64,000 nt of DNA from Eledone cirrhosa (lineage: Eukaryota). Position 1 is the stretch's first letter. Each line of letters starts with the position of its first letter. The position numbers and the translations under genes are program-made. The notes below the pieces were generated by a model. It was not told the DNA's origin. It searched no databases and was given only the letters and a program-made list of their open reading frames with translations. The stretch lies in assembly GCA_964016885.1 (NCBI GenBank), contig OZ024749.1:33852001-33916000 (forward strand), read 5' to 3'. Below, piece after piece: positions 1 through 61,043 of this stretch.

Positions 1-382
1 CTGTAAGTAAAACTCTGTGAAGCATGATTGCCTCCCGGCCACTGTTTGTACTACGATATATATGTGACACATCTTTAATTGATATTAACCTAAAAAAAAA
101 GATATAATTTCTTCTGTGAATGTTTAATTTACTCTTTTAATGGAAGTTAACAACGTTAAAGACATAGTGAGATTCTTTAAACAAAAAACCTACTTACAAT
201 ACATTATTATATAATGATTTGTATCTGTTTGTTCATTTATTTATCGTTTAGTTATTGATTTCATTACTTTATTTTGGAGACATTTTGTTTACTAATTGGC
301 AATATATATTCATTTGTTACCATTACCTACATTGATTTTCCAATACTTTCTCTTTACATACATACACACATATACATTCACA

Positions 383-1823: not shown

Positions 1824-1877
1824 CAGAATTAGCCGTCGAAACGGCTTGAGCTCAGCTGTCGGGGTCTTACTGGTTCC
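1824..1877 (+). mobile_element. Family A element fragment with 3' half of an HHR
   Basis: ttagccgtc-GAAA-cggct-tgagctc-agctg-TC-ggggtc followed by (TA)n; same family at 4961, 11327, 12625, 51350, 58879. Confidence 0.65.
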
Positions 1878-2012
1878 TATATATATATATATATATATGT
1901 GTATGTATATATGTATATCTGTATGTTTCTATCTATATACCTGTCTATTATCAATGTATGAATATATGTCTATATGTTTATATGTATGTATGTATGTATG
2001 TTTTCTGGCTAT

Positions 2013-2969: not shown

Positions 2970-3967
2970 ATATTCATACTATACTGTACAAAATGAATTC
3001 TTTAACCACACAGCCATACCTATATTATACTATACAAAGTGATCTCCTTTACCACACAGCTATACCGATATTAAACTATACTGTTCAACGTGAACTCCTT
3101 TACCACACAGCTATTCCTATATTAAACTATACAAAATGAAGTCCTTAACCACACAACCATAATATGCCAATTCTATTGAGTAGTTAGCATTCCTATCTTA
3201 TAATCGTTCAATTTGAAGATTTGGCGACTACGTCAAGATGTATTATCTCGAGAGACAAAGTTTATTTTGATTAATTAGTGGGTCTTGCTAATTAAATTTT
3301 GTTCATTAGTGTTCAGCTTTTATATTTAATTAATTGATACATCAACTACATGTTTGTGAGTGGTTGTTGACCGAGTCCGTAAAATTTTAGTCATATTCGG
3401 CGTCTTCAAACAGTTCCGCTAACCTCTGAACACTTTAACAATGTTAACAATGCTTTAACAATGTCCGGTGTTGGAGTCATGATGATAATGTCAAGGGTTC
3501 GATTCCAGGACCGGACAGAGCGTTGTTTTCTTGAGCAATTATCTATTTTGCCACGCACACATATATACACACACACATATACATACATGCATACATACAT
3601 ACCTATATATATATATTTTTTTTTTTTAGTATATATATTTTAGTATATTTTTTTTTAGTATATGCTGGTTGTTTACCGACACTTCAGTATGCAGATTGGA
3701 GCACTCGACGAAGTACGCAGGTTGGTTTTGTTACTCCGGAGTAATGTAAAATAAAATAATTGAGTCAAATATTTAAAATTTGGCTTCGTTTATTAAAGAT
3801 GTACTGCTATATATATTTCGGTGACAGCCATCATGATGCCGAAATTCGTTTGTTCGAATTCATATGATTCCAGTTCCTCAGAGAAATAACAACCCAACCA
3901 GGAGCTGGACATATCGGAGTAAAACACTTTAACAACATGTGTACCTGTCTCTACCACACCAATTGGG

Positions 3968-4022
3968 ACTGCCTGAAGAGGTCACAGCCAAAGATAGTTG
4001 TCACCGAAATATATATAGCAGT
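3968..4022 (+). ncRNA. Type I hammerhead ribozyme motif
   Basis: actgc-CTGAAGA-ggtcacagc...gttgtcacc-GAAA-tatata-TA-gcagt; inverted partial copy at ~3747-3831. Confidence 0.85.
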
Positions 4023-4071
4023 ACATCTTTAATATACGAAGCCAAATTTTAAATATTTGACTTAATTACTT

Positions 4072-4499: not shown

Positions 4500-4832
4500 A
4501 TAAAGAATGAATAATAACAAGTAGACATCATAAAAAGGTAATTTATTCTGTGCGCTTACAAATGTATCCACGGTGGTTATACAACCTAGTTATGCCATGT
4601 GCAAATTTATAACTATTTGCAAAACTCAATTATCAAATGCTGTGACCACTGTATCCTCAGAGCAGAATGATTCTGCTCTGAGGATACAGTGGTCACAGCA
4701 TTTGATAATTGAGTTTTGCAAATAGTTATAAATTTGCACATGGCATAACTAGGCTGTATAACCACCGTGGATACATTTGTAAGCACACAGAATAAATTAC
4801 CTGTTTATGATGTCTACCTGTTATTATTCATT

Positions 4833-4838
<6 letters not shown>
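4500..4838. repeat. ~170-bp-arm palindrome carrying two head-to-head HHR-like motifs
   Basis: Apex at 4669; + copy 4674-4785 tgct-CTGAGGA-tacagtggt...accaccgtg-GATA-catttg-TA-agca (GAAA replaced by GATA in both arms); mirror at 4553-4664. Confidence 0.8.
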
Positions 4839-4888
<50 letters not shown>

Positions 4889-4960
4889 ATTACGTGTTCC
4901 AATCAACAGACTGCGACCATGCTGGGGCACTGCCATTCATATATGTATATATATATATAT

Positions 4961-5069
4961 AACGAAGGAAATGTGGTAAGGAACCAGGTGGACCATAACG
5001 CACCAAAGTACTCAATACTTGAGGTAGTAGAGTGGGTAAAAGGAACCAGTAAGGGGTCTTACTGGTTCC
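4961..5069. mobile_element. Family A element, inverted pair between (TA)n
   Basis: Minus copy ends gtaa; plus copy starts at ggggtc (5053). Confidence 0.75.
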
Positions 5070-5329
5070 TATATATATATATATCTGTGTGTGCGTACGT
5101 AAATATTTTGGGACCAAATAAATCTGTTTAAACTTGGCTGTCGAGAAGAATTAAATTTTGTCACTGTTGCCAGGAGTTGCGACTGACTGATAGTATCAGC
5201 AACAGAAAACGGTCAACAGGGACTTAGATTCCTTGGTCTGATCTCATGATCAACTACTTTTCTTTCCAGCTATCCATCTCAGAGATCTTTGTAGATGCTC
5301 TTTTTATGGTGACTAAACTATCAACTAAT

Positions 5330-5718
5330 TGTTTCTACTTTTTGGCACAAGGCCAGCAATTATCCTTGTGCATTACTGGTCCTTTATTTTATCGACCCCG
5401 TAAGGATGAAGGGCAAAGTTAACCTCGGCGGATTTGAACTCAGAACGTAAAGGGACGTAACTATGCTGGAAAGCATGGAGTCCGATTCTCTACCGATACT
5501 GCCAATCCACCGCCATCGACTATCAAATAATTATTTCTATTTTTGGCACAAGGCCAGCAATTACCCAGTATATTACTGGTACTTTATTTTATCGACCCCG
5601 TAAGGATGAAAGACAAAGTTAACCTCGGCGGGATTTGAACTCAGATCATAAAGGGACGTAACTCTATGCTTCAAAGCATGGCGTCCGACTCTCTACCGAT
5701 ACTGCCAATCCACCGCCA
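5330..5718 (-). mobile_element. Two tandem major-family SINEs
   Basis: Reverse complement of the SINE consensus twice. Confidence 0.85.
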
Positions 5719-7019
5719 TCAACTATCAAATAATGTCGAACTATGTGGAGTGTGTAATCACAAATTATTTACACACAAGTTAATAATTTTAATTACAAAT
5801 TAGTGGCAAACAGACTAGAACAAACAGTCGGCTCTTCAACATTGCCAAATGGTTGAAAGTACTTCATTTTACAGTGAATGTGATAAGCTTTGCTACCGTC
5901 GAAAATGTGGAGGAGGTTAAACAAAAATATAGATACTGTATAACCTCAATTCGATCTTTACAAATTTAAACCTTTCGTTACCATATTTCGACTGAAATAC
6001 ATTGCTCATGAGATTTAACTAATTATGGAAATATTCATGAAATAGGTTAGATTTAGTAACATAACTAACTTTAATTAATTATTTAATTACAGAAATATTC
6101 AAGAATTAGGTTAGATTTAGTAACATGACTAACTGTCTTATTATCAAGCTGTTTAGGACATGACTAACGAAGGATCTTCTCTTCACATTCATCCAACGCC
6201 AGGTATGCCCAGGTATACCCAGGTATGCCCAGAAGTTCTTCTAAAAAAATTACTTCTCCGTTTTTTTTTTTGCTTTTTTTTAACAGGTTTATTTTCTATC
6301 GTCCGCTTGCTAGTCCTGTCGTGACTAATCCCATCGATGTTATCCAAAGGAAAGGTAAAGGCCGATGCTGCTTAACACCAGTGCCGGTAACAATTCATTT
6401 CTACGGCTGAGTGAACAGGGACAACATGGAATAACGAAGGATCTTACATGATATTATGATGGAAACATTTTAGATAACATAAACACTTTAATAAATAGTT
6501 TGATATCATAAAATCATGTGCAGTTTCAGGCAGTTGGTATCAAAAGGGTTAAAGAGAAATTAAGATTGATGGGATATTTAGCGAATCAGTATTCGGCCAG
6601 ATAAAACATTCTTGACACAATATCAATAGTTCAGTAACTTTGGAGGAGATTAGAGAAGGAAAGAGGAAAATCCTAGGTCGGATCAACAAAATTATGTCTA
6701 TATTGATCATTCCACTGTTAATGTTATCTGTTGGTCATAATTTCTGGCCGAATCGTCACTACCTTTCCTGTGAAAGGAAGCAGTATTTGAACACAGAAAG
6801 CACAGATCCGGGTTGGAACAGATATCACATAGTATCTTGTTCGACACTTTTAATAACTTCACCAATCCAACGGCTCTGGGTTGCTATTTAATTCATCAAC
6901 ATCTGAATAGTGAAAACCAAAGTTGAACTCAGACATTGAGGAGTGGTAGGCAACAAATACCACAAAGCATTTTCTACAATACTCTTACGAGTCCACCAAT
7001 TTGTGGACATTATCTAAAT

Positions 7020-10759: not shown

Positions 10760-11160
10760 ATTGAAGGTGTCGGTAGAGCGTCAGACACCCTTTTTTGCAG
10801 CACAGAGTTATGGCTCATTACGTTCTGAGTTCAAATCCCGCCAAGGTTACCTTTGCCTTTCATCCATACGGGGGTCGATAATATAAAGTACCAGTAATGC
10901 ACTGAGGTCGATTTAATCAACTTTCCCCTCTCTCCAAATTGATGGCCTTGTGTCTAGTCTGAATCAGAAACCATTGTGGATTGGCAGTATCAGTAGAAGG
11001 TCGGACGCCATGCTGCCCAGCATAGTTACATCCCTTTACGGTCTGAGTTCAAATCCCGTCGAGGTTAACTTTGCCTTTCATCCTTACGGGGTAGATAAAA
11101 TAAAGTACCAGTAATACACTGGGTAATTGCTGGCCTTGTGCCAAAAAGTAGAAACAATTA
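10760..11160 (+). mobile_element. Two tandem major-family SINEs
   Basis: Consensus match twice. Confidence 0.8.
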
Positions 11161-11189
11161 TTAAACATTATTTGAAATAAGACATATAC

Positions 11190-11235
<46 letters not shown>

Positions 11236-11326
11236 GTATATGTCTTATTTCAAATAATGTTTAATAATTGTTTCTACTTTTTGGCACAAGGCCAGCAATT
11301 ACCCAGTGTATTACTGGTACTTTACT

Positions 11327-11422
11327 GGGGTCTTACTGGTTCCTATTACCCACTCTACTACCTCAAGTATTGAGTACTTTGGTGCGTTATGGTCCACCTG
11401 GTTCCTTACCACATTTCCTTCG

Positions 11423-11473
<51 letters not shown>

Positions 11474-11665
11474 AACAAGTAAGACCCCGACGGCTGAGCT
11501 CAAGCCGTTTCGACGGCTAATTCTGGACGTCCAGAATTAGCCGTCGAAACGGCTTGAGCTCAGCCGTCGGGGTCTTACTTGTTCCTATTACCCACTCTAC
11601 TACCCTAAGTATTGAGTACTTTGGTGCGTTATGGTCCACCTGGTTCCTTACCACTTTTCCTTCGT

Positions 11666-11667
<2 letters not shown>
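11327..11667. mobile_element. Family A composite: + copy, (TA)n, perfect palindrome centred 11528/11529, + copy
   Basis: Arms 11472-11528 and 11529-11585 are exact reverse complements; contain GAAA-cggct-tgagctc-agccg-TC. Confidence 0.85.
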
Positions 11668-11753
<86 letters not shown>

Positions 11754-12538: not shown

Positions 12539-12624
12539 AGCAAAGAGATATTTAATTTGTTGAAATATATATAAATATGGTTTTATAAATATAGTTTCCA
12601 TTTATTGATATCATTGATATATAT

Positions 12625-12762
12625 AACAAAGGAATTGTGGTAAGGAACCAGATGGACCATAACGCACCAGAGTACTCAATACTTAGAGTAGTAGAGTGGG
12701 TAATTTCCAGAAATAGCCGTCGAAACGGCTTGAGCTCTGCCCTCGGGGTCATACTCTTTCCT
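12625..12762. mobile_element. Family A inverted pair
   Basis: Minus copy joined to ccagaaatagccgtcgaaacggcttgagctc...ggggtc, then (TA)n. Confidence 0.75.
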
Positions 12763-13219
12763 ATATATATATATATATATATCCAGCCATGTATGTATGT
12801 ATGTATGAATTTATGAATTTATGTATGTATGTATCTGAATACAACGGGTGGTGTTGTAGGAAATAGGTTCAATAGAAACTGCTTGATATAAAACAAAACG
12901 AAATCTAACTATATGGACTGACCTATTTCATTCTTTACCACTCCCACCATCACCTTACTTTCAACGTACAATATCACTATTTAGATTTAACACAAATCAG
13001 CGTCATGAACATTATTTTTATTTCATCTATTGTTTTAACCTAATTACAATTTTTTAATTAAAAGTATATTGACTGAAGTGCCAATCAACTGATTAATTAT
13101 ATTTCATGAATAGTATTTCCAAGGTAAAAAAAAATATATATATAGAAAAATGAAATATTGTGATTTATTTTCTTATTACTTTCGTGTATTAGATTCCATT
13201 CCCGATGGAGCAACTACAT

Positions 13220-16304: not shown

Positions 16305-17487
16305 ACATTCGGTAGAGAGTCGGACGCCATGCTTTCTAGCATAGTTACGTCCCTTTACAGTCTAAGTTCAAATCCAGCCGAGGTTAACTTTGCCTTTCAT
16401 CCTTAAGGGGTCGATAAAATAAAGTACCAGTAATGTACTGGGTAATTTGCTGGCCTTGTGCCTAAAGTAGAAACAATTATTATCAGAGTGTTGGATTGAC
16501 AGAATCGGTAGAGAGTCGGACACCATGCTTTGCCGCATAGAGTTACGGCCGTTTAATATCTGAGTTCAAATCCCGCCGAGGTTAACTTTGCCTTTCATCC
16601 TTAAGGGGTCGATAAAATAAAGTACCAGTAATGTACTGGGTAATTGCTGGCCTTGTGCCTAAAGTAGAAACAATTATTATCAGAGTGTTGGATTGACAGA
16701 ATCGGTAGAGAGTCGGACACCATGCTTTGCCGCATAGAGTTACGGCCGTTTAATATCTGAGTTCAAATCCCGCCGAGGTTAACTTTGCCTTTCATCCTTA
16801 AGGGGTCGATAAAATAAAGTACCAGTAATGTACTGGGTAATTGCTGGCCTTGTGCCTAAAGTAGAAACAATTATTATCAGAGTGTTGGATTGACAGAATC
16901 GGTAGAGAGTCGGACACCATGCTTTGCCGCATAGAGTTACGGCCGTTTATGATCTGAGTTCAAATCCCGCCGAGGTTAACTTTGCCTTTCATCCTTATGG
17001 GGTCGATAAAATAAAGTACCAGTAATGTACTGAATGATTGCTGGACTTGTGCCAAAAATAGAAACATTATTCAGGGCGGTGGATTAGCAGTATCGGTAGA
17101 GTGTCTGTCTGACACCATGCTTTGCAGCATAGAGTCATGGCCTTTTACGTTCTGAGTTCAAATTCCGTCGGGGTTAGCTTTGCCTTTCATCTTTACGTGG
17201 TCAATAAAATAAAGCACCGGAGATCGATATACTCAACTTTTCTCCATCCCCTGAATCGCTGGCCTTCTGTCGATGTGTTGTGGCAGTATAGATAGAGCGT
17301 CTGACACCATGTTTTGCAGTATAGAGTTACGGCCCTTTACGTTCTGGGTTCCAATCCCGCCGAGTTTAGCTTTGCCTTTCGTCCTTACGAGGATCGATAA
17401 AATAAAATAGACACTGGTGTCGATATGATAGAATTTCCCCACCCCTTCAAATGGCAGGTCTTGTGCCTAAAGTCGAAACAATTATTA
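16305..17487 (+). mobile_element. Head-to-tail array of about six major-family SINEs
   Basis: Units starting cagagtgttgg at 16484, 16681 and 16878 (197-bp period, near-identical) plus diverged neighbours. Confidence 0.9.
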
Positions 17488-22018: not shown

Positions 22019-22073
22019 ACTGCCTGAAGAGGTCGCAGCTAAAGATGGCTGTCACCGAAATATATATAGCAGT
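22019..22073 (+). ncRNA. Type I hammerhead ribozyme motif
   Basis: actgc-CTGAAGA-ggtcgcagct...ggctgtcacc-GAAA-tatata-TA-gcagt; host element 21903-22125 matches 3862-4080. Confidence 0.85.
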
Positions 22074-22283
22074 AATAAACGAAGCTAAATTTTAAACATT
22101 TGACTTTTTATTTTACTTTATTTTATATATAAATATATATATATATATATATACAGAGCGAGTCACACTTACACACACACACACACATATACATATACAT
22201 ACATATATATATATATATATAAATATTTATATATATATATATATGTATGTATATGTATATGTGTGTGTGTAAGTGTGACTCGC

Positions 22284-22416: not shown

Positions 22417-22636
22417 TCTTCATTTATCTCTGTTTCTCTTGCTCTGTATATATATATTTATATATATGTTGATTTAAAACTGCACTATCCACAAGTGTTT
22501 TTTAATCTTCATATCTTGTCTTCCTGTTTTATCTGATGAAAACACAAATATTATTGCATGATGATATTTGTTTTTGAAATGCGCATAATAAAATACATGG
22601 AACTCTTTTAACCATCTTTTGTTCTTACATATTATT

Positions 22637-51349: not shown

Positions 51350-51538
51350 GGGTGTGGTACCAGGTGGACCATAAAGCACCAGAGTACTCAATACTTATGG
51401 TAGTAGAGTGGGTAATAGGAAAAGAATCAGGACCCCGACGGCTGAGCTCCGGCCGTTTCGACAGCTAGATCCGAATAGTTCGGATCTAGCTGTCGAAACG
51501 GCCGGAGCTCAGCCGTCGGGGTCCTCACTCTTTTCCTA
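51350..51538. mobile_element. Family A variant palindrome, apex ~51477
   Basis: gtttcgacagctagatccgaa-tag-ttcggatctagctgtcgaaac. Confidence 0.8.
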
Positions 51539-51543
51539 TATAT

Positions 51544-51731: not shown

Positions 51732-51774
51732 GTCACTGAAGAGGTGACAGAATGTGTGACGAAAGAACTTTGAC
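51732..51774 (+). ncRNA. HHR-like motif
   Basis: gtca-CTGAAGA-ggtgaca(gaatg)tgtgac-GAAA-gaac-TT-tgac; relatives at 59790 and ~42905. Confidence 0.65.
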
Positions 51775-51990
51775 AATATATAAACAACTATCGGGTTGTG
51801 GAACCAACCAACCAACCAGAAATTTATAAATTCCTAAATTTATAAATTTATTATAATAAATTGAAGTGAAAGCAACTGGTGCGTGTGTTTCTTATTGGCA
51901 ACATGACCCTCCCAAAGTATAACAATATCGGTTTCAACACACGTTTTCAGATAAAGAATCTTGCTAAACAAATTCAGATGCGAAATATAA

Positions 51991-58840: not shown

Positions 58841-58878
<38 letters not shown>

Positions 58879-58880
<2 letters not shown>

Positions 58881-59025
58881 CGAAGGAAATGTGGTAAGGA
58901 ACCAGGTGGACCATAACGCACCAAAGTACTCAATACTTAGGGTAGTAGAGTGGGTAATAGGAACGAGTAGGACCAGAATTAGCCGTCGAAACGGCTTGAG
59001 CTCAGCCGTCGGGGTCCTACTCGTT

Positions 59026-59027
<2 letters not shown>
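58879..59027. mobile_element. Family A inverted pair
   Basis: Minus copy joined to ccagaattagccgtcGAAA...TCggggtc; both arms share the cctactcgttcc variant. Confidence 0.8.
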
Positions 59028-59086
<59 letters not shown>

Positions 59087-59789: not shown

Positions 59790-59832
59790 GTCACTGAGGA
59801 GGTCACAGAATGTGTGACGAAAGAGCTTTGTC
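59790..59832 (+). ncRNA. HHR-like motif
   Basis: gtca-CTGAGGA-ggtcaca(gaatg)tgtgac-GAAA-gagc-TT-tgtc. Confidence 0.6.
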
Positions 59833-61043
59833 AATATATAAACAACCCTCCGGTTATCGAACCAACCAACCAACCAACCAATCAACCAACCAACTGGAAA
59901 CTTATAATAAATTGAAGTGAAAACCAACAGGTGCGTGTGTTTTTATTGACAACATGACCCTCCCAAAGTATAACAATATATATATATATCAACCACAGCT
60001 ACGGACTTGGCCAATCCGTGCAAGCATGGACGAACGGACCTAATACTGTCACTTTAACACATAATTTATGGTGGATACAAACACTGCTCAAATATTTCAG
60101 TTGATTTGAAAAAGTAAAACTTGTTTGTTTTTCTATAATACATTTTCACCAATGTTTTCGCGCAGAATTAATTAACTGAGATATATAGACCGGGTCAGCC
60201 CGTCACTCTTCTTTCTATATCATCTTTTACCTCTCTATCCTCTTCCACCTCCCCCTGCACTTCATCTTCTACCTCCTTCTCGCCATAGGATCGTAATCTA
60301 TCACCGATAGATATTTCCAGCATTTTCTTTTTTTTGTGTGGGAACGGGTAGAATTAAATATTTCTACCCCAAGTTAAAATATAATCCATACAAAGGTAAT
60401 CAAATAAAGGGCTTAAGTGGGGATTTCGTTATCATTTTTTTATCAAAACCTTGAAGATAATTTTAATTCAATTCAGTATACTCCATCGTTCTCTTTCGAA
60501 AGGATCATAGAAGTAGAAGAAAGTTGAAAAAATAAAATGTCTTCGTATTCGGAAGAGTGAGCTGAAAAATCCGTTTGGACAGAAAAATCTACCCTGATTT
60601 ACTCAATTAATACAGAAACCTAAAGACTTTATACGTTCTAATGTGTTATTTTTCTTGCTATGGGTGATACTATATTTTAGTCACGATCTATGTATGAATC
60701 AGATGATAATATTTCACCTGTGTATTTGCCAGGGGAACAATGGAGAACATTCAGTGCATTAATACATATTCAGGGCTAATATTATATTAGCTGATCAATT
60801 CAGTGAATGGTCGATAATGGTGGATCAATTGAAAGAGCAACCAGAATAAATAGCATGCAGCACCCAGGTCAATAGGAAAACAAAACAAAATAAAAATAAA
60901 AAAGAGAAAGTAATGGTTTTCATTCAAGATGGCGACTGGTTGGTGCTCATTTAACTCATTTACATAACATTGTCGTGTATTCCTTCAAACATGGTATTAC
61001 CGCAGCTTATAACAACACGCACATACATATACACATGCACACG

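Follow-up and report, generated by a model that had tools for sequence, protein, structure and literature searches.

The window, which is the whole stretch of 64,000 nucleotides of Eledone cirrhosa DNA analysed here, holds seven insertions of a repeat, family A, comprising twelve arms. We number family A from the first G of GGGGTC (+1), with the predicted cut of a hammerhead ribozyme between -1 and +1. The motif behind this prediction, GAAA followed by stem III and then by GTC directly before GGGGTC, had been pointed out in the initial annotation and is present. It lies in a long arm of the major class that starts at -40 (11529..11668, + strand). This arm contains the 3' strand of stem II, then GAAA (11546-11549) and stem III, and the cut is predicted at 11568|11569. 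An inverted short arm, -40 to +20 (11469..11528, - strand), is joined to it bluntly. Another long arm runs from +1 to +100 (11327..11426, + strand), that is, from the start of the predicted 3' cleavage product to the likely distal internal priming site, with its last 1-2 nt common to the (TA)n; it belongs to the ACTGG/CTCAAG subfamily. The window also holds a short arm from +1 (or +2) to +20 (5053..5072, + strand). The long arm of the same insertion (4959..5053, - strand) covers +6/+7 to +100 and does not start at the cut.

The copies at 11327 and 5053 had been described as starting precisely at GGGGTC. At face value both start at +1, but each junction is ambiguous. A CT linker (11325..11326, + strand) precedes the copy at 11327, as had been noted; it is either untemplated or, with the next GG, a possible re-copy of TACTGG 9 nt upstream, giving a start anywhere from +1 to +3. 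The 'host' DNA to which this linker was said to lead is an inverted duplicate (11232..11324, + strand) of host DNA 11101-11192 around the (TA)n at 11193-11232, and is joined to the element 5' end. The usual continuation of the host repeat at this flank is TTTTAT (14 of 17 window copies), and no piece bridging the junction was found among the listed contigs of four sequencing runs. The copy at 5053 is joined to the inverted arm, as proposed, but its first G matches the complement of +6 in that arm as well, giving a start at +1 or +2. With two of the twelve arms at +1, P is 0.06 at an assumed rate of 3.5% and 0.0006 at the flanking rate of 0.3%, for a site picked after the fact. Because their junctions are ambiguous by 1-2 nt, the two window copies at GGGGTC prove little alone.

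The other window insertions are a short-type copy from -37 to +20 (1824..1880, + strand) and three two-arm insertions, given without strand: one of an older subfamily, with its short arm from -39 and its long arm from about +19 (12623..12764); one of a diverged subfamily, in which both arms run through the site (51356..51539); and one with a short arm from -38 and a long arm from +3 (58877..59030). None of the window copies holds the 5' half of the ribozyme, which is present elsewhere in the genome. Host DNA beside (TA)n was often duplicated in inverted orientation (window 11101-11324 and 4500-4838; also locus L023), and at 11327 and L023 the element 5' end is joined to or lies beside the inverted host arm. 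The insertion machinery may copy flanking DNA. The SINE-like host repeat flanking 11327 also forms tandem arrays at 5316-5734 and 16309-17218, with units of 203 and 197 nt.

Pattern searches of the 3.0 Gb genome found at least 19,070 copies of family A, the 3' repeat of a Penelope-like retroelement (PLE) that belongs to the Hydra clade. In the copy L142, a 710 aa open frame lies upstream of the repeat. A Pfam search of this frame returned no match at E<=0.1, and on motif reading it contains YRDD, IY and YIG, the arrangement of EN+ PLEs, in which a single ORF encodes a reverse transcriptase and then a GIY-YIG endonuclease. The frame also holds RWR at 27, DKT at 109, CxCX5C at 564, CxxC..E at 662 and CxH at 690, matching the set given for the Hydra clade (RWK-like, DKT, CxCX5C linker, CxxC, CxH) in the description in PMC8557442. 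The insertions have the partial tandem or inverted repeats of EN+ PLEs, with a tail at one end: an inverted short arm accompanies 59 of 90 long arms, and an intact upstream repeat is present in 14 of 30 read-through copies. As in the Hydra clade, they lie in (TA)n, and GTTATATAT ends 107 of 137 long arms, the remainder ending mostly in its variants. On these motifs and insertion traits, we assign family A to the Hydra clade of PLEs.

The 3' ends of the arms are fixed at two places in (TA)n, +18..20 and +98..100. In 40 copies the element sequence continues past +100; therefore both ends probably mark sites of internal priming, and the insertions fall short of the complete reverse transcripts that the initial annotation took them for. 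A non-LTR retrozyme, defined as non-coding tandem monomers with a hammerhead in each (bioRxiv 10.64898/2026.07.22.740005, in the part available), was rejected as the identity of family A, in that long copies carry the reverse transcriptase ORF and short copies are two-arm palindromes lacking the core. The motif scans also took in 200 kb of neighbouring DNA, and the output of repeat finders on the window was dominated by microsatellites. Beside a family A tandem, locus L143 (1802-3556 and 4570-5760) holds two ORF fragments of a non-LTR reverse transcriptase that we take to be RTE-like.

The 5' half of the hammerhead was found at 3,941 places in the genome. Among the first 100 of these listed, the core pair was U3-A8 in 83, C3.A8 in 17 and C3-G8 in none, and the canonical CUGANGA core was seen in 0 of 100. 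G5, A6, A8 and A9 were invariant in these 100 cores, G5 and A6 being fixed by the search pattern itself, and variation was confined to N7 and position 3. The U3-A8 pair is a published variant of PLE hammerheads (PMC4209133, as far as its available text goes). Three stems around the core and a UH cut triplet, as in a type I hammerhead, were present in the predicted folds of L236 and L213. For L236, from the subfamily of both window copies named above, the full hammerhead was the lowest-energy fold, with stem probabilities of 0.97/0.73/0.69; in L213 stems I-III formed with probabilities of 0.99/0.95/0.91. The fold was partial in L208, absent in the C3.A8 copy L244 and not formed in L207, also C3.A8 (0.41/0.01/0.01). 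An Rfam search found no family at gathering score in the window and no hammerhead at E<=10 on one full copy. The more diverged copies L207, L244 and L263 are C3.A8 and others (L220, L236) are U3-A8, a split that might reflect a core pair once lost and later repaired. Several other hammerhead-like families also lie beside (TA)n in the window, the majority having the canonical CUGANGA core (1214-1270, 3969-4025, 22020-22075, 22529-22600, 51732-51800 and 59790-59860). More were seen in loci outside it, two families having U3-A8 cores.

The genome-wide histogram of 5' ends proposed in the initial annotation revealed a peak at +1. Among the 19,070 long arms, 18,128 have the C at -1 and 942 do not. 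A script called 56 of the first 90 of these 942 truncated; checking by eye removed six (point changes, insertions and internal deletions) and left three ambiguous, so that there were 47 clear +1 starts and 40 arms not truncated. Scaling from 47 of 90 gives about 490-520 copies starting at +1 genome-wide, or 2.6-2.7%, a lower bound that misses starts preceded by chance by a C. We then classified arms by hand within subfamilies; counts out of 100 refer to the first 100 matches listed, which come from contig 1 and the beginning of contig 2, and totals are for the whole genome. The initial DNA search picks copies reaching -37 and was kept out of the histogram. The flank reference was the mean of bins -2..-6 and +3..+6, with -1, +2, -7 and +7 onward left out.

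In ACTGG long arms, +1 held 27 starts against a flank mean of 2.0 (first 100 of 708 matches, P=3e-16), and in ACTGG short arms, which overlap the long-arm insertions and are not independent of them, 23 against 2.6 (first 100 of 600, P=8e-12). ACTTG arms gave 12 against 2.3 (first 100 of 775, P=5e-5). A script run on the first 30 ACTGG long-arm matches placed 7 at +1, the same as the hand count. The peak was weaker in ACTCG arms, with 7 clear and 3 ambiguous starts against a flank mean of 2.4, and there the +1 bin was no higher than +6 (8) or +7 (9) among the 100 listed. The excluded bins, per 100 listed in ACTGG long, ACTGG short, ACTTG and ACTCG arms, held 10, 16, 10 and 5 at -1; 9, 2, 5 and 4 at +2; and 7, 3, 2 and 9 at +7. 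Together, these counts indicate that the +1 peak of 5' ends in family A is real, sharp and local.

Most copies start further upstream. Of the first 92 matches listed for long arms with C at -1, two that had been examined already (starting at -4 and -3) were skipped; among the remaining 90, the start falls in -35..-45 in 59 and in -1..-30 in 22, and the other 9 are long. The upstream edge at -45 is hard, with no start beyond it among 59 short arms. The catalytic core, at -84, lies upstream of the -41 start. In the first 100 of 3,249 arms starting at -41 after a purine, this purine was G in 88 and A in 12, and 47 of the 88 Gs were not explained by the inverted arm. At +1, the preceding base was T in 26, A in 15 and G in 6 of the 47 clear starts. 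In L1 insertions, capped templates are recognisable by an additional G at the 5' end, according to the available text of PMC11702581. The contrast in the extra G between -41 and +1 starts (P=7e-5) therefore suggests that the -41 templates were likely capped and the +1 templates uncapped. From these data, most templates were likely capped RNAs beginning inside the ribozyme, in loop II, and unable to self-cut alone, and a minority were likely self-cut, uncapped RNAs starting at +1. A TATA-like 8-mer, TATTTAAA, is located 29 nt upstream of -41. Long runs of T or A stand directly before -41..-44 starts in L093, L169, L175, C1:18731497 and C1:129391128, which suggests homopolymer addition or slippage at the template end. 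In L250 and L251, a second 5'-truncated unit begins near -38/-40, after 60-90 nt past the tail, as expected from template jumping to a new RNA.

We consider it probable, reading the insertions as a record of their templates, that the +1 copies arose when the reverse transcriptase ran off the end of a self-cut RNA, and that most other copies derive from a likely capped start about 40 bases earlier. The junctions of the +1 class resemble those left by a reverse transcriptase that runs off an RNA end without a cap. In 19 of the 47 clear +1 insertions, both inverted arms stop at +1 with a spacer of 1-6 nt between them, an arrangement not producible by microhomology; microhomology of 1-5 nt with the other arm was seen in about 7 of the 47. 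Several observations weigh against the self-cut reading, among them the absence of a hammerhead match in the Rfam search. Among 30 copies continuing past the tail, the upstream repeat is intact in 14, six begin within -37..-45 and only a single one begins at +1. In addition, ribozyme mutants of an anole PLE showed normal insertion in vitro, and RNA-seq gave no read with its end at the cut, according to PMC11167929 in its available part.

An alternative is that no RNA was cut, and that ends gather at GGGG either because stem III halts the reverse transcriptase at its foot or because trimmed cDNAs survive best when joined at G/C runs. This would account for the high counts in the adjacent -1 bin (10, 16, 5 and 10 per 100 listed). 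However, a stall set by the stem III base pair at -2 predicts ends at -1/-2, and -2 holds 2-4 per 100 listed, while the C at -1 was taken from the inverted arm in nearly all ACTGG rows ending there. As a control we used the foot of stem II, which follows the same 7-mer. Only 6 of 100 listed arms start there, at -23, and 5 of these are microhomology joins; with no unexplained peak at this foot, a generic hairpin stall is therefore not supported. Moreover, the predicted fold of the capped -41 RNA lacks stem III, and the double +1 joins with untemplated spacers fit the end of a template.

The same alternative gains from two comparisons. First, a weak peak persists in a subfamily with some mismatched cores. 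ACTCG, which has some C3.A8 cores, shows the weakest peak relative to its flanks (7:22, against 27:18, P=0.004), yet 14 of the 47 arms with a clear start at +1 belong to it, and in absolute terms its rate was little lower (about 2.1%, against 2.9% and 3.6%). Because its cores are mixed (3 C3.A8 and 3 U3-A8 of 6), ACTCG is not a clean control. A tail base meant to separate its two cores, chosen from two long copies, was the other base in 12 of the 14 +1 starts. Second, the only clean peak occurs in the family with a G run at +1. In an unrelated family with a canonical hammerhead and no G run, the +1/-1 bins held 18 of the first 100 of 652 matches, against 12 over -3..-8 (P=5e-5) and 32 over +2..+5 (P=0.40), which is a step at the cut and not a clean peak. 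In that family (for example L341, L346 and L349), a junction at +3 was seen in 14 of 100 listed, all preceded by G, and was commoner than a join with longer microhomology. Weighing both sides, we regard stalling or G-run joining as an unlikely origin of the peak.

Transcription usually starts at a pyrimidine-purine step. A capped start at +1 itself, which is C-G, was rejected: it would yield a fifth G, and no more than 6 of the 47 starts have one. A minor start at the G of +2 is also improbable: a copied cap would add one G there and mimic a +1 start. The enzyme seems to copy the cap into an additional G, +2 starts do exist (9, 2, 4 and 5 per 100 listed) and the ratio of starts with and without the G is a possible one for a cap; against this, such a start would be G-G, and its base-exact coincidence with the predicted cut would be due to chance. 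Least probable of all is that a protein nuclease cuts at the unpaired base, or that the G run halts a 5'-to-3' exonuclease, with a hammerhead that is decayed or incidental, a proposal favoured by the non-canonical core pair and by the weak cleavage of metazoan PLE hammerheads in vitro (PMC4209133, in the text available) and opposed by the constancy of G5, A6, A8 and A9 and by a predicted fold with no strong structure beginning at +1.

Returning to run-off from a self-cut RNA, we propose the following sequence of events. A promoter inside stem/loop II would start a capped RNA at A(-41), and perhaps also at A(-45). Lying downstream of the core, this start would produce an RNA with half a ribozyme, incapable of self-cutting alone. 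Read-through or tandem transcripts would hold the whole ribozyme and would be cut after GUC, leaving an uncapped 5' end. The element protein would then nick (TA)n on both strands and prime inside the RNA at about +99 and +19; both cDNAs would extend to the 5' end of the RNA and be joined after the addition of a few untemplated bases, giving the two-arm palindromes. We further put forward, as a tentative idea with somewhat less than even chances, that the choice of start site acts as a ribozyme switch. The capped -41 RNA would be immune and the read-through RNA cut, and both would be retrotransposed with distinct genomic signatures, a cap G or an uncapped run-off, making a countable in vivo record. 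The capped RNA, which has the whole 3' half, might also be cut in trans by a core-carrying RNA.

Several parts of this picture are already known, namely PLE hammerheads, the U3-A8 core, the Hydra clade, internal priming, the pseudo-LTR promoter and the reading of R2 junctions. Family A resembles the Hydra-clade EN+ PLEs, as described in the available text of PMC8557442, in its RW[RK], DKT, CxCX5C linker, CxxC before E and CxH motifs and its C-terminal GIY-YIG-like region, and in its (TA)n insertion, inverted 5'-truncated copy, tail and hammerhead within the repeat. It differs from the Hydra PLEs of that description in its core (U3-A8 or C3.A8, not CUGANGA), its tail of about 80 nt rather than 30-40 and its number of copies (at least 19,070); the same text mentions neither 5' ends at the cut nor a start inside the ribozyme. 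With the minimal PLE hammerheads of PMC4209133 (available part), including the Schistosoma Cercyon U3-A8 variant, it shares the type I form, a 5 bp stem I, a long stem II, G10.1-C11.1 and the U3-A8 covariation. In contrast to them, its stem III has 6 bp and a palindromic loop, so that it may fold as a monomer, and the likely promoter start lies within its loop II, of 37-39 nt.

Poseidon PAc of the green anole likewise has two internal priming sites that define the tail, an AT-rich target nicked on both strands and uncut RNA as its main substrate (PMC11167929, same limits). In the anole no read ended at the ribozyme site and cleavage seemed dispensable, whereas family A has a genomic class that starts there. 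R2 retrotransposons with HDV-like ribozymes also have genomic 5' junctions that reflect the ribozyme cut (PMC3774820, in part). They differ in ribozyme and element class, and the cut is the normal 5' end in R2, whereas in family A it would be a minor route beside the likely capped start. The Penelope element of Drosophila virilis has its promoter and start site within the pseudo-LTR, as family A appears to; it is described as TATA-less with an intron, unlike family A with its TATA-like TATTTAAA (PMC2377424, in part). In titles and abstracts of the mostly open-access literature, we found no report of PLE insertions starting at a hammerhead cut, nor of a start site inside a PLE hammerhead.

The initial annotation read the window copies as a fossil record of in vivo cleavage. 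Two copies cannot carry that inference alone, and 18,128 of 19,070 copies have the C at -1, most reaching -35..-45; for the +1 class genome-wide, a minority, a fossil record of cleavage is the best reading of the junctions and likely holds. Of greater use are the two contrasting signatures, a capped start and an uncapped cut. In the available text of PMC4209133, in vivo evidence for PLE hammerheads is stated to be absent, and whether they cut in cells, and for what purpose, is stated to be open there and in the corresponding parts of PMC8557442 and PMC11167929. Thousands of young insertions would here serve as a natural 5' RACE, pointing in about 3% of events to an RNA that begins uncapped at the predicted cut and in most to one that begins with a cap within the ribozyme. 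Exact and cheap predictions for RACE and cleavage assays follow, and the counting can be transferred to any PLE-rich genome. Such a division of templates would also account for the apparent dispensability of the ribozyme in vitro.
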